64,000 bases of DNA from Dehalococcoidia bacterium (lineage in GTDB: Bacteria; Chloroflexota; Dehalococcoidia; Bin125). A model generated the notes under the pieces. It worked only from the letters and a program-made list of their open reading frames with translations. It ran no database searches and was not told the DNA's origin. The stretch is from assembly GCA_963662615.2 (NCBI GenBank), contig CAXXSR010000001.1:1504001-1568000 (forward strand), read 5' to 3'. A program made the position numbers and the translations under genes. Shown piece by piece: positions 36,005 to 40,380 of the stretch (its first letter is position 1; each line of letters begins with the position of its first letter).

Positions 36005-36514
36005 GTGCAGCGTGAGAGGCCCCCAGTGCTCAACCGCATGATCGGCTCCATGCGTCGGAACCATGCCCTGGAGCACGCAACCGTGTCCGTGTTGCTGAGC
36101 CGACTGGGTCCCAACATCCGGCTGGTGGGCCGGGCCGTCAGCAGCGGCTTCTACATCTACGGCAATGTGCCGGCGCAAGAGTTGGAGGCGGCGGCGGCAG
36201 AGGCGCTGGTGCGGATGCAGCGGGGCGAGAAACAGCTGGCCGTCTCTCCCCTCTGCGGGACGAATCTGGCGGTGGCGGGCACCTTGGCCGGCGTTGCCGC
36301 CCTGCTGACGGTGGGCAGCGGCAACCGCTGGGAGCGGATGCCCAATGTGCTCATGAGCGCCATGCTGGCGGTGCTGGCCGGCCAGCCGCTCGGCCGGCTG
36401 GCGCAGAAGCATCTCACCACCGACGCCGACCTCGCCGACACGCGCATCGTGGGCTTCCGGCACGGCGGGCGGGGTGGGCGGCGCTACACCAAAGTGGAGA
36501 CGGCGCGATCGTAA
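36005..36514 (+). CDS. DUF6391-like membrane protein
   Basis: 'RRNHALEHAT', 'GFYIYG', 'LAVSPLCGTN', TM hairpin, 'QKHLTTD'. Confidence 0.75.
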   Translation: MQRERPPVLNRMIGSMRRNHALEHATVSVLLSRLGPNIRLVGRAVSSGFYIYGNVPAQELEAAAAEALVRMQRGEKQLAVSPLCGTNLAVAGTLAGVAALLTVGSGNRWERMPNVLMSAMLAVLAGQPLGRLAQKHLTTDADLADTRIVGFRHGGRGGRRYTKVETARS

Positions 36515-36603
36515 GGTGGCGACGCGCTGCGACGCAGCCGTGGGACAGTGAAGTAAGACAGCGCCGACGCTGGGCGCAACGGCCGCGCCGCGATTCCCAT
36601 GCC

Positions 36604-36680
36604 GCCCCCGTAGCTCAACTGGATAGAGCAGCGGCGTTCTAATCCGCAGGTTGCAGGTTCGAGTCCTGCCGGGGGCGCCA
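36604..36680 (+). tRNA. tRNA-Arg (anticodon UCU)
   Basis: 77 nt. Acceptor stem GCCCCCG/CGGGGGC, D-arm GCTC..GAGC, anticodon loop GTTCTAA, T-arm GCAGG-TTCGAGT-CCTGC, encoded CCA. Confidence 0.95.
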
Positions 36681-36973
36681 GGTTTCGCCAAACGAGAATG
36701 CTGGACACGCGCGTGGTGCACCACGCGCGCAGGCGGCGGCGCGGCCCCTTCGGGAATCTTGCACCCTCCCGTCACCCATCGGTGGTGGACCCATAGACGT
36801 GTCAGGAGTTGCTGCCGCCCGCGCAGCGCTATCGGAGCGAAGGTGACTACCGGCCCCATGTGCCCCTACAGTCCCAAGGAGCAGCCGCCCCCACCCGAGC
36901 GCTGGCATCGCCAGGGCATCCCCGGTACGAGTGCGGGGGCGGTCGCGGACAGCACGGACGGAAGGAGCTTCCC

Positions 36974-37414
36974 ATGGCCGAATTGAAGCTCGCCTACCAG
37001 GTGAGGAGCTACAGCTCCGGTACCCTGGGACGCGCCATTTGTAACGCCCGCAACCACCACTTTGTCGCCGACGGCCCGGACGGGGACGAACTGGGCGCCT
37101 CAGAGTTGTTCCTCTCCGGCATCGGCGCCTGCGCGGTGAACATGGTGGAGCGGGTGGCCAAGGATGAAGAGATCCCCGTGGACTGGATGGACGTCAGCGT
37201 GGCGGCCTACCGGGACCCCGACAAGGTTCCGGCGAAAATAAGCGTCTACGACGACGTGCGGGTCCACCTCCAGATATGGGGTGTTGACGACACCCAAGGT
37301 CAGCACCTCGTGGACGTGTGGAAGCAGCGTTGACCCCTCTACGGTTCGGTCGCCGTGGCGACCCCCAGCACCAGCGTCACCTCAGAGATTTACGCCGGTC
37401 CGCACCAGCGGTAG
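36974..37414 (+). CDS. OsmC/Ohr-family protein, probable selenoprotein (UGA at 37331-37333 read as Sec)
   Basis: SD AAGGAG; 'ELFLSGIGAC' first Cys motif; 'WKQR-UGA-PLYGSV' where the family has CP; a hairpin follows the UGA and the frame stays open for 26 codons to TAG. Confidence 0.82.
37348..37363 (+). promoter_or_regulatory. Putative bacterial SECIS hairpin
   Basis: GGTCGC-CGTG-GCGACC starting 15 nt after the UGA, with GU in the apical loop. Confidence 0.65.
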
Positions 37415-37561
37415 TGGACAGGCGCCACCGCACAAGCCAATCGCCTGCTCCGCATTCCAACCCTCCTCCTCCGCCCTCCTGAAGCGGCTTGGCGAGGTTC
37501 CATCATGGTCGGATTGCGCGCCGTCGACGGGGCTCGAACCTAGAGCCTTCCGGACCCCCGG

Positions 37562-37746
37562 TGACATTCAACCCGACATCCAACCCGCTGGACAACCACG
37601 GCGCGCGGCGGCACGCGATGGACGGCGCGCGCGTCTGAGCCCGTGGCGACGCGGCCTCTACGGCCACGTGTGGACGTCCACGGACACATGACAGTCGGCC
37701 CTCTAATCCGCAGGTTGCAGGTTCGAGTCCTGCGCCGGGGGCGCCA
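37562..37746 (+). repeat. att-like unit 1: 140-bp arm plus tRNA-Arg 3' half copy
   Basis: TGACATTCAACCCGACATCCAAC arm-type repeats, GG(A/C)C about every 10 bp, then TCTAATCCGCAGGTTGCAGGTTCGAGTCCTGC(GC)CGGGGGCGCCA. Confidence 0.92.
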
Positions 37747-37877
37747 GAATTTCCAATCCGGTAGCCGGCCGCTCGCATGTCCCTACGCAACGGTCACGGC
37801 TCGTTTGACAGCCAATCGCCGGGCCACATGGAAGCCGACGGGGCCCGCTACAATATCCCTTTCCTAGGAGTGAAGCG

Positions 37878-39020
37878 ATGGATCTCGGGTATTTCATGAT
37901 GCCGGCCCATCCGCCGGAGCGAAAACCGTACGACTGGCACCAAACGGACCTGCAGGCGCTTCGCTGGGGCGATGAGCTGGGGGTCACCGAGGCCTGGATC
38001 GGCGAGCATTTCACGGTCGCCTGGGAGCCGAACCCGGCCCCGGATCTGACGATCGCGCAGGCCTTGCTGCAGACCAAGCGGATCAAGCTCGCGGCCGGCG
38101 CGCACTTGCTGCCGTATCACAATCCGGTGGAGCTGGCGCATCGGGTCGCCTTCCTCGATCACCTGGCGCAGGGGCGCCTCCAGCTTGGCGTCGGCGCCGG
38201 CGGCCACGTCGGCGATTTCCTGGCGTTTGATGTGGACGGCCAAAACGGCGAGAACCGCACCATGATGTTCGAGGCGCTCCAGATCATGATGGGCATCTGG
38301 GCGGCGGAAGGCGCGTATCAGTACAAAGGCAAGTACTGGAGCGTAAACATTCCGGAGTCGATGGTCGCGGGCAACTATACCCATCACATGCACACGTTCA
38401 CCAAACCGCATCCGCCGATCGGCATCGCCGTGGTGACACCGCGATCCGACACGATCAAGTTCTGCGGGGCGAACGGGTTCATGCCCTTGAGCATTCATCT
38501 CAACGACACCTACACGGTTGGTCACTGGGAGACCTACGTCGAATCCGCGGAAGCGAACGGCATCACGCCCGATCGCAACAAGTGGCGGATTTACGCCGAG
38601 ATTCTGGTCGCCGAGACGGATGCCGAAGCGGAGAAGCTGGCCTTTGAAGGGCCGCTGGGCCGCGCTTGCCGCGAATATGCTTGGCAGATCTTCAACACGT
38701 TCGGGTTCCTCAAGCATATGAAGCTCGACCCCTCGATTCCGGATTCGGAGGTGACGCCGGAGTACATCATGCGGAATTGCTGGATCATCGGCTCAGTCGA
38801 AACCGTCACCGATCGGCTCGTCGAGCTCTACAACAAGACCGGCGGCTTCGGCACCTTGCTGTGGAGCCCGACCGACTATGGCGAACATCCCGAGCGGATG
38901 CGCCATACGTTGGAACTGCTGTTGAACGAGGTGCTGCCGCGGGTGAACAAGAACGTTCAGCCGCTCCCAGCGGCCACAGATTCGACGCAGGCGAGTAACC
39001 GCGTACTCCACGTCCGTTGA
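37878..39020 (+). CDS. LLM-class (luciferase-like) flavin-dependent oxidoreductase
   Basis: 'MDLGYFMMPAHPP', 'EAWIGEHF', 'LLPYHNPVELAHRVAFLDHLAQGR', 'KPHPPIG', 'GGFGTLL'; SD AGGAG. Confidence 0.93.
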   Translation: MDLGYFMMPAHPPERKPYDWHQTDLQALRWGDELGVTEAWIGEHFTVAWEPNPAPDLTIAQALLQTKRIKLAAGAHLLPYHNPVELAHRVAFLDHLAQGRLQLGVGAGGHVGDFLAFDVDGQNGENRTMMFEALQIMMGIWAAEGAYQYKGKYWSVNIPESMVAGNYTHHMHTFTKPHPPIGIAVVTPRSDTIKFCGANGFMPLSIHLNDTYTVGHWETYVESAEANGITPDRNKWRIYAEILVAETDAEAEKLAFEGPLGRACREYAWQIFNTFGFLKHMKLDPSIPDSEVTPEYIMRNCWIIGSVETVTDRLVELYNKTGGFGTLLWSPTDYGEHPERMRHTLELLLNEVLPRVNKNVQPLPAATDSTQASNRVLHVR

Positions 39021-39200
39021 CATCCAATCTGACAGTTGCGCGTGTGGACAACGACGGCACGCGGTGGCACCCGGGGGACGAAGGGCGCGTCTCTACCCCT
39101 TGAACCATGGCCTCCACGGCCACGTGCGGACGCCCAGGGACGCCCGACGGTCGGCCTTCTCATCCGCAGGTTGCAGGTTCGAGTCCTGCCGGGGGCGCCA
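39018..39200 (+). repeat. att-like unit 2: 140-bp arm plus tRNA-Arg 3' half copy
   Basis: Gaplessly collinear with 37562-37701 (100/140 identical by hand count); ends TTCTCATCCGCAGGTTGCAGGTTCGAGTCCTGCCGGGGGCGCCA. Confidence 0.92.
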
Positions 39201-39855
39201 AGTTTCTCGCCGAGAGTGAAGCGCGGTCGCCGTGACCAACCGGACCGCGGCAATGTAATCTCCGCCGAACATCCAGCGTCCAACAGCGTTGGGTCCGGCC
39301 GGGAGGGCCGGACGGGCCAGGCGCGAAGATGCATCTCTTCGCCGTCGAGAGAGGCCTCACGCTCATCGAGCCCCGCGAAAATGCGCCCTCAGGCCGCGGG
39401 TAGGTACGCGACGATCTGACGGTTGCCGGCATCGGACGGCCGCCGGATCGGGCGCCGGCGCGCGGATTTACCTTGGCTTTACCTCACTCTGGAACCAGCG
39501 AGCTGGGCCGCGCGTCTTGCCGATCAGGAACCGTTCCGTGGGCAAGCAACGCGCTGCGTGTGAGTCTCGTGTTGAGGGCGTGACAGACCGACGCACCTGG
39601 CATGGGCGATAGTGGAGATGCGTTGCTCGGACGGCGCCCGCGAACGGGCCAACAGGCCGGAACGTGGGCGGTCGAGAAGCGCCGCAGACCCAACGAGAGC
39701 CCAGGCGCAGGGCAGATCCGGATCTACTCGTGTGGGGACGGGCCGCCGTTCAGTCCTCCGGCGAATCTTCACCCTTCCTGAGACGGGGAGAGAGTTCCGC
39801 CGCCCGTCCTGTCTGAATACGACCGTGCTGTCTGAATACGAAAGGTGACCATCGA

Positions 39856-40380
39856 ATGCAACAACTCGTCACATCCGTTCTTCGGCCCCTCCGCCGATCC
39901 TCTCTGCGCTCTCACCCTCAGGTCGGCGCGCTCCGAGATATCCCTCTGTTCGATCACCTCGACGACGCGGCGCTGGCGAGACTCGCCCGGCACGTCGATC
40001 GGGTGACCGTTGGCGCGGGTACAGTCCTGGTTCGCCAGGGGGCGCGTCCGTCCCGCGATCTCCTGCTCATTCTCGACGGGGCAGTTCGCATCGAACGAGA
40101 CGGCGGGGAGCTGGCGCGGCTCGGCAGCGGGGATTTCCTCGGCGAGCTGTCCCTCCTGGACGGCATGCCGACCACCGCAACGGCGATCGTCGAGACGCGA
40201 ACAGATCTCTTGATCCTTCACCGCGATGGGTTCATGCAGTTGCTCGACACGGATCCGCTCTTCCTGCGCAAGCTCACGCTCGCGCTTGGGCGGCGGCTTC
40301 GCGCCACCAACGAGGCGGTAGCCGGCTTAGGACGCGCGCAGCGGTCCCTCAGTCGGGGAGATTCCGGATCACCTCCGTGA
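39856..40380 (+). CDS. Stand-alone cyclic nucleotide-binding domain protein
   Basis: 'LRDIPLFDHL', 'LGSGDFLGELSLLDGMPTTAT'. Confidence 0.85.
   Translation: MQQLVTSVLRPLRRSSLRSHPQVGALRDIPLFDHLDDAALARLARHVDRVTVGAGTVLVRQGARPSRDLLLILDGAVRIERDGGELARLGSGDFLGELSLLDGMPTTATAIVETRTDLLILHRDGFMQLLDTDPLFLRKLTLALGRRLRATNEAVAGLGRAQRSLSRGDSGSPP

Follow-up and report, generated by a model that had tools for sequence, protein, structure and literature searches.

A tandem pair of integrase-less units bounded by attachment sites at the tRNA-Arg(UCU) gene of a Dehalococcoidia bacterium

The tRNA-Arg(UCU) gene of a Dehalococcoidia bacterium (GenBank assembly GCA_963662615.2) is followed directly by two small units, each of which carries one gene and ends in a copy of the 3' half of that tRNA. 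The locus lies in a stretch of 64,000 nucleotides (contig CAXXSR010000001.1, positions 1,504,001 to 1,568,000 of the forward strand; G000:C1:1504001-1568000), which is called the window here; positions are those of the window unless a contig is named. The source genome, G000, comprises 2.66 Mb in two contigs and has a G+C content of 68%. We lean towards reading the locus as a tandem pair of integrase-less mini-islands of the cis-mobilizable element (CIME) type, bounded by attachment (att) sites, in which two related elements integrated one after another and lost everything except cargo and att. The anatomy of the two units, the absence of recombinase genes, the searches for related sequences and the state of comparable loci in relatives are described below, and the alternative explanations are weighed against them.

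Anatomy of the tRNA-Arg(UCU) locus

The intact tRNA-Arg(UCU) gene, the putative integration target and attL side of the first unit, occupies positions 36604-36680 on the plus strand (ARAGORN; Rfam tRNA, 61.5 bits). It is the sole tRNA called by ARAGORN in the window, and the genome, with 48 tRNAs in all, has no second tRNA-Arg(tct). Unit 1 (36681-37746, plus strand; 1066 bp) consists of a left spacer, an OsmC-like gene, arm 1 and a copy of the tRNA 3' half. Unit 2 (37747-39200, plus strand; 1454 bp) consists of a left spacer with one arm-type motif, a luciferase-like monooxygenase (LLM) gene, arm 2 and a further copy of the half. Repeat searches and comparison with the tRNA place copy 2 of the half, which runs from the anticodon loop to the CCA end, at 37702-37746 (plus strand; 95.6% identity over 45 nt; an insertion of 2 bp separates the T stem from the acceptor strand). 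Copy 3, which is probably the original end of the tRNA in a displaced position, was located in the same way at 39157-39200 (plus strand; 97.7% over 44 nt, with an A-to-C change in the anticodon-loop part). Both copies are co-oriented with the tRNA, and their identity to it starts in the anticodon loop. Direct repeats of a tRNA 3' half from the anticodon loop are a signature of integration by a tyrosine integrase, and such a starting point defines the anticodon-centred class of tDNA integration sites in the excerpted text of PMC4383910. No further tRNA-like fragment occurs within either unit; an inverted T-arm-like stretch at 37518-37548 gave no tRNA match at E <= 0.05 and was treated as chance.

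The segment that precedes each copy of the half is the arm. Arm 1 (37562-37701, plus strand) is P-arm-like, with tandem TGACATTCAACC / CGACATCCAACC repeats and seven phased GG(A/C)C motifs, and its homologue, arm 2 (39018-39157, plus strand), overlaps the last codon and the stop of the LLM gene. The two arms, 1456 bp apart, align without a gap and are identical at 100 of 140 positions, compared with a mean of 40 and a maximum of 63 identities in about 20,000 random pairs of 140-nt segments of the window; a repeat search lengthens the pair to 154 nt at 79% identity. The motif TGACANYCAA has three matches in the whole window (at 37562, 37806 and 39018), all of them at this locus, where 0.28 would be expected, and none of 100 shuffles reached a count of at least three. 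The looser pattern GACA[TG][TC]CAA has 29 matches in the whole genome, and their sole cluster is this locus. The match between the arms, TGACAGCCAATC (37806-37817, plus strand; motif scan), lies 60 nt inside unit 2 and is a possible P' site. Both arms also carry seven GG[AC]C motifs at common offsets (28, 58, 91, 100, 110, 120 and 135; spacings of 30, 33, 9, 10, 10 and 15 nt), compared with 2.6 expected per 140 nt. On this evidence, the right arms of both units are homologous and built like a P arm. The tRNA halves have changed far less than the arms (47/49 positions identical to the tRNA versus 100/140; Fisher p = 2e-4), which is to be expected if each half belonged to a functioning tRNA until the following integration, and two arrivals of diverged relatives are a better fit than duplication in place.

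By blastn, the two units have unrelated left ends, and that of unit 1 lacks TGACANYCAA; complete attL sites have thus not been kept. The left end of unit 1 also holds a perfect, G+C-rich palindrome of 22 nt (36708-36729, a self-match on the opposite strand), which is located 28 nt past the 3' end of the tRNA and is not followed by a T run; it may bind a protein or form a trailer hairpin of the tRNA.

No recombinase gene was found in the window. The genome has 18 matches to PF00589, none of them inside the window, where PF00239 and PF07508 are also without a match, and tblastn of 17 integrase proteins (15 frames of G000 and two from relatives) against 36400-39900 gave a best E value of 0.08. 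The initial annotation of the window had described the tRNA gene followed by two units of 1066 and 1454 bp, the ungapped arms with their 100 identities, the shared TGACA-type repeats and GG(A/C)C motifs, the arm-type site inside unit 2 and the lack of an integrase or its remnant, and all of these observations were reproduced here. Its further proposals, that the att sites are of the tyrosine-integrase type at a tRNA 3' end and that independent arrivals explain the pair better than duplication does, are supported by the direct repeats and by the uneven conservation of halves and arms.

No copy of the arms was found outside this locus in any collection searched. With blastn at word size 7, the whole genome yielded no copies of either arm beyond the two, and queries consisting of the arms only found no match at the tRNA-Arg(UCU) loci of 20 relatives. 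In 401 genomes of the class (its own included), arm 2 gave, outside its own genome, only chance-level matches of 20-40 nt, the best of which covered 32 nt (E = 1.9e-4). Exact-pattern scans returned no match for the arm-core junction in the metagenome_contigs and genome_contigs collections and none for a conserved arm block in genome_contigs, although exact patterns miss diverged relatives, and the own genome or near-identical records may be missing from those collections. Four viral contigs with the tRNA-half pattern turned out to carry complete phage tRNA-Arg genes, with no integrase match and no similarity to the arms. One integrase gene of the genome (G000:C1:1196958-1198145), located 1.7 kb upstream of tRNA-Arg(CCT) and closest in sequence (38% identity) to a truncated integrase of the relative G010 that is discussed below, was considered as a helper; it has no flanking tRNA fragment and a single isolated motif match at chance level, and was rejected as a demonstrable helper.

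The locus itself occurs nearly identically in public sequencing runs of eight studies, and 20 of the 24 listed runs contain part of it; no RNA run is listed among those that do. Assembled Logan contigs from four runs of four studies all end within the repeats of the tRNA half, so that none of them crosses the whole locus; they contained no circle or empty-site junction, which contigs of this kind could not show in any case. A joint of 36639 to 37703 in run X12, which mimics the loss of unit 1, was rejected: it lies inside the repeat, has a 29-nt side and a depth of 376 versus about 8 for the organism, and was assigned to the tRNA of another organism. A sigma-70 scan of 36400-39900 returned no promoter-like site, which, coming from a simple consensus search, is weak evidence.

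Cargo genes of the two units

The initial annotation assigned the cargo of unit 1 to OsmC, which the Pfam match upholds (OsmC, 4.2e-10), but the end of its reading frame at TGA 37331-37333 has to be corrected. Standard open reading frame (ORF) calling cuts the gene short at 119 codons, whereas the gene extends over 146 codons (36974-37414, plus strand) if this TGA encodes selenocysteine (Sec). A homologue was found in one other genome only, G004, among 61 genomes of the family (G000 included). The two proteins are 40% identical, and the TGA codons of the two genes align, with the PLY.SVAVAT stretch coming after the TGA in G004 as well. Despite the low protein identity, both genes have an identical 16-nt hairpin 14 nt past the TGA (37348-37363, plus strand), which resembles a selenocysteine insertion sequence (SECIS). 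The genome also encodes Sec machinery, namely a tRNA-Sec (C2:309606-309703) and SelB (C1:1250949-1251086, 66.9 bits). OsmC-like proteins are listed among the prokaryotic selenoprotein families in the tables of PMC1088965. With a conserved in-frame TGA, a downstream SECIS-like hairpin and Sec machinery in the genome, the gene has the features by which selenoproteins are recognized, and its product is very probably a selenoprotein. A sequence search of the PDB with the OsmC-like protein gave no match.

The LLM gene of unit 2 (37878-39020, plus strand) encodes 380 amino acids (Pfam Bac_luciferase, 9.1e-33). It shares 91% nucleotide and 88% amino-acid identity with a gene of G004 (L033:8075-9208), which belongs to a different genus, while the flanking DUF6391 gene shares only 71% nucleotide identity between the same two genomes. 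The difference between the 91% identity of the LLM gene and the approximately 71% of flanking core genes points to a recent horizontal transfer of the gene alone. The G004 copy lies at an unrelated locus among short-chain dehydrogenase/reductase and transporter genes, and neither a tRNA nor an att repeat is close to it. The G+C content is 59-60% inside the LLM gene and 68-72% around it, and its dN/dS value of 0.2 relative to G004 indicates purifying selection. Judged by identity and composition, the LLM gene is foreign and horizontally acquired. The borders of the homology coincide with the gene, which was considered as a sign of a cassette and rejected, as a metagenome homologue of 77% identity shares the same borders, which are the ribosome-binding site and the natural C-terminus. 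In run X12, one metagenome contig holds a variant of this unit with an LLM gene of approximately 93% identity (window 38748-39126); the arm is matched up to 39032 and again from 39126, and the intervening 93 nt are unmatched. This single contig provides a lead to a diverged strain that carries unit 2 and retains both ends of its arm.

Origin of the units

We infer the following course of events. Two related but diverged elements of one tyrosine-integrase family would have integrated successively into the one tRNA-Arg(UCU) gene, at its anticodon-loop sublocation; each time the tRNA would have been restored by the 3' half borne by the attP of the incoming element, and the earlier half pushed downstream. 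The 140-nt arms would then be the P arms of two attR sites, in which the TGACAKYCAA arm-type repeats and the helically phased GG(A/C)C motifs may represent sites of the kind bound by integrase N-domains and by bending or excision factors. The integration modules would subsequently have been lost, most probably through deletions that took the greater part of the P' arms with them; that the elements were already non-autonomous on arrival is less likely. Selection would have kept one useful gene in each unit, in the first that of a probable OsmC-like peroxidase containing Sec and in the second that of the horizontally acquired LLM. Renewed movement of the units would depend on the supply of a cognate integrase, which is not seen in G000.

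Comparison with relatives offers a parallel to such decay. The genes upstream of tRNA-Arg(UCU) (a 385-residue ORF, an SLT-domain protein and DUF6391) are syntenic across the family, whereas the downstream side differs in every genus examined, and an ancestral empty site is consequently not definable from relatives. Extra 3' copies of tRNA-Arg(UCU) are present in 6 of 24 genomes of the same family. The most informative is G010, a fragmented assembly that is 84% complete, in which an att module of approximately 290 bp occurs in three copies that are 91-93% identical to one another. The module consists of about 195 nt upstream, a tRNA half and about 50 nt downstream, and its sequence is unrelated to the arms of the window. 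Between the modules lie genes for metallo-beta-lactamase-fold, enolase-superfamily and ABM proteins, followed by an FMN-dependent dehydrogenase and an aldo-keto reductase. One module is followed by an N-truncated integrase gene that reads towards it (a frame of 228 residues; the Pfam match starts at model position 28 of 172), and this neighbour of an analogous module points to decay of integrase-bearing elements. No close intact paralogue of the truncated gene is present in the G010 contigs examined (best identity 41%). Among the outcomes that would speak against its proposal, the initial annotation had named deletion scars of large integrase-bearing islands in a fixed order. The truncated integrase agrees with the first part of that picture; the order and the cargo at tRNA-Arg(UCU), however, are not fixed among relatives. 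Decay is favoured over an active pool of units because of this truncated integrase, the unrelated left ends, the lesions in both displaced halves and the failure of all searches to find another arm or a helper.

Several points weigh against decay from integrase-bearing elements. Neither unit contains an integrase remnant, and two independent deletions that each spared the cargo and the P arm are required. No autonomous relative of the arms was found, and descent from an integrase-bearing element is something we infer. The mismatches between the arms are weakly clustered (p = 0.03 and 0.06), which, together with the identical motif spacing, hints at constraint on the predicted binding sites. 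An intact tRNA-Arg(UCU) is present at 13 of the 20 relatives' loci, and an integrase at none of these 13 in the 7-14 kb examined downstream. Finally, integrase-free units bounded by tRNA fragments recur, both in the 6 of 24 family genomes and at a second tRNA of G000, and this recurrence could reflect a systematic process rather than random decay. The second mini-array of the genome is at tRNA-Phe (C1:762798-765251; L063:2799-5252; minus strand), outside the window, where two fragments that extend from the T arm to the 3' end delimit units of 1.1 and 1.2 kb. It has no integrase and no long conserved arms, and its cargo is a lamin-tail-domain protein in one unit and a small ORF with a MarR regulator in the other.

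The initial annotation had gone further and proposed an active, integron-like capture platform, in which minimal cassettes of cargo and att are excised as circles and re-integrated in trans at tRNA-Arg(UCU). We hold this to be unlikely, although the missing integrase remnants, the ordered arms and the recurrence of such units keep it alive as a minority possibility. It agrees with the single gene per unit, with the conserved P arms in which repeats and phased motifs keep identical spacing, with the arm-type motif at the left end of unit 2 and with the near-intact core copies. It also draws support from small integrase-free units with differing cargo at tRNA-Arg(UCU) elsewhere, counted in the analysis as four other genera: vapBC in G020 and G015, helix-turn-helix and coiled-coil proteins in G018, and metabolic enzymes in G010. 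In G020, the tRNA is followed by vapB (FitA-like) and vapC (PIN), then by a 35-nt half and the gene of an Eco57I-type enzyme. G015, of the same genus, also has this vapBC pair, with a full-length tRNA-Arg(UCU) gene on either side of it (L039:13167-14105), and in two more species of that genus a vapB homologue is found 1.9 and 4.2 kb from the tRNA. The G018 unit, of 1.46 kb, encodes one helix-turn-helix protein and one coiled-coil protein. The integrase-free units at tRNA-Phe, the three highly similar G010 modules between unrelated cargo and the LLM cargo shared with another genus at 91% nucleotide identity are likewise compatible with mobility.

The observations against an active platform carry more of the argument. 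The initial annotation had looked to many arm copies with different cargo and to a cognate integrase for its support; no further copy was found in the genome, in the 400 other genomes of the class or in the exact-pattern scans, no integrase is linked to such an arm, and the motif scan of the genome shows no second cluster. With unrelated left ends, the circles formed by excision would not restore a single shared attP. Copy 2 of the half has a 2-bp insertion, and copy 3 has its substitution in the anticodon-loop part, the expected place of crossover. In the G020 unit, only 46 and 18 nt separate the repeats from vapBC, which leaves no room for arms, and none is present. The G010 integrase beside the module is truncated and has no close intact paralogue in the contigs examined, and the orientation of the cargo is not uniform across the related arrays. 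The broader proposition, that tRNA genes (Arg-UCU, and Phe in G000) serve as docking sites for a pool of minimal cassettes with lambda-type att sites, moved by an integrase that is encoded elsewhere or transiently present, seems to us doubtful at best.

A local tandem duplication of arm and tRNA half, followed by divergence and by later insertion or replacement of the cargos with no second integration, would explain why the arms align without gaps over 140 nt and why they are found only here, as one pair. We consider it improbable. Cargos and left ends lack similarity, the contrast between halves (47/49) and arms (100/140; p = 2e-4) would call for gene conversion limited to the halves, and the LLM gene is foreign in composition, with a near-identical counterpart in another genus. 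That the arms are a functional RNA or regulatory element (a small RNA, the remains of an intron, or a processing signal attached to a tRNA-like 3' end) is highly improbable: they do lie directly 3' of the cargo genes, lead into a tRNA-like 3' half and share a small GGCC...GGCC hairpin, but Rfam at E <= 1 over 36300-39900 matched the tRNA alone, folding z-scores of +0.13 to +2.21 on both strands of both arms are no better than those of shuffles, and only 1 of the 44 pairs predicted within the arms shows a compensatory change. A coding function of the arms was ruled out, the mismatches between them being distributed 13/13/14 over the codon phases with no three-base periodicity.

Further tRNA-derived fragments were noted in G000 and its relatives. 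G009 and G016 have one extra 3'-half copy each, on a contig without an intact tRNA-Arg(UCU). The 3' half of tRNA-Lys(UUU) of G000 occurs in four copies (C2:19585-19627, C2:7725-7769, C1:1997942-1997986 and C1:1988235-1988277), each immediately preceding an integrase gene. The integrase genes form a near-identical set, and a fifth, shorter integrase frame adjoins the real tRNA-Lys at C2:32188-32263; this set looks like a multi-copy element that carries its own att half. Fragments of tRNA-Gly(CCC) are found at six places in the same genome. In two species of another genus (G010:C346, L015:1-160; G001:C64, L051:2020-2215), the tRNA-Arg(UCU) by DUF6391 is broken right after the anticodon loop and runs into conserved non-tRNA sequence, and ARAGORN finds no tRNA in either locus. 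G001 has a degenerate 5' half and an inverted anticodon-loop core about 150 nt downstream. An insertion, or else site-specific inversion at this core, could account for the broken tRNA. Downstream of the two units in the window, a 19-nt sequence is repeated twice head to tail (39801-39838; 89% identical) just upstream of the start of a gene for a cNMP-binding-domain protein (39856), and may be an operator.

Relation to known integrative elements

Integrons, and the pdif modules of Acinetobacter plasmids, which depend on host recombinases, also consist of single-gene units that lack a recombinase of their own and are stacked at one site. The window differs from both in its boundaries, formed by direct repeats of a tRNA half preceded by a 140-nt arm in place of attC hairpins or XerC/D sites. 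On neither strand do the arms fold better than shuffled sequences, and, unlike an integron, the window has no tyrosine recombinase IntI, attI or Pc. The related arrays also follow no common rule of cassette orientation.

The closest resemblance is to CIMEs. As set out in the excerpted text of PMC5704250, these have lost the genes for integration and transfer, have kept attL and attR, and form tandem accretions; they were first described for elements related to ICESt1 and ICESt3 of Streptococcus thermophilus (Pavlovic 2004 and Bellanger 2011, both cited therein). Like the units studied here, they are flanked by attL/attR direct repeats at the 3' end of a target gene, lack integration and transfer genes, stand in tandem at one site and result in a stacking of genes. 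In the window, three co-oriented tRNA-Arg(UCU) segments form the flanking direct repeats, and Pfam analysis of the cargo and the recombinase searches revealed no integration, excision or transfer gene inside the units. Known CIMEs, in the same excerpt, differ in that they adjoin or are clearly related to a functional integrative and conjugative element or integrative and mobilizable element whose integrase acts on them. No autonomous element with related att sites was found in the collections searched, an absence there that is no proof of nonexistence. The two units are also far smaller than CIMEs (1.1 and 1.5 kb, one gene each), stand alone as a pair and have no known autonomous relative.

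A second comparison is provided by the ssrA islands of Dehalococcoides, 15 of which are without an integration module and have been proposed as possible cis-mobilizable elements or fixed relics (excerpted text of PMC3146451). According to that text, they too stand in tandem downstream of one small-RNA gene, with direct repeats of its 3' end and a short conserved motif just upstream of each; they differ in having a tmRNA target, a 20-bp repeat, the serine integrase DsiB, integration modules in 16 islands and several genes each (PMC3146451). The tDNA islands recognized by Islander, as far as the excerpt of PMC4383910 describes them, resemble the locus in having an intact tRNA with a displaced 3' fragment downstream in the same orientation, of the anticodon-centred class, and they are required to contain an integrase gene and to be at least 2 kb long. 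The window presents the tRNA and its displaced fragments, whereas its units lack an integrase and measure 1066 and 1454 bp. The locus is best filed as a minimal tandem pair of an already described category, that of integrase-less units bounded by att sites. Since, in the excerpted PMC4383910, pipelines of the Islander type reject candidates that lack an integrase or are shorter than 2 kb, mini-islands of this kind go systematically uncounted.

If units of this kind did move in trans, they would constitute a second, independent way to build arrays of gene cassettes. If, as we favour, they are relics of integrated elements, they would show how elements integrated at a tRNA gene can be pared down to one selected gene and an att scar in a small, G+C-rich genome, and a selenoprotein gene and a recently transferred monooxygenase would have entered this chromosome by way of tRNA-integrating elements.

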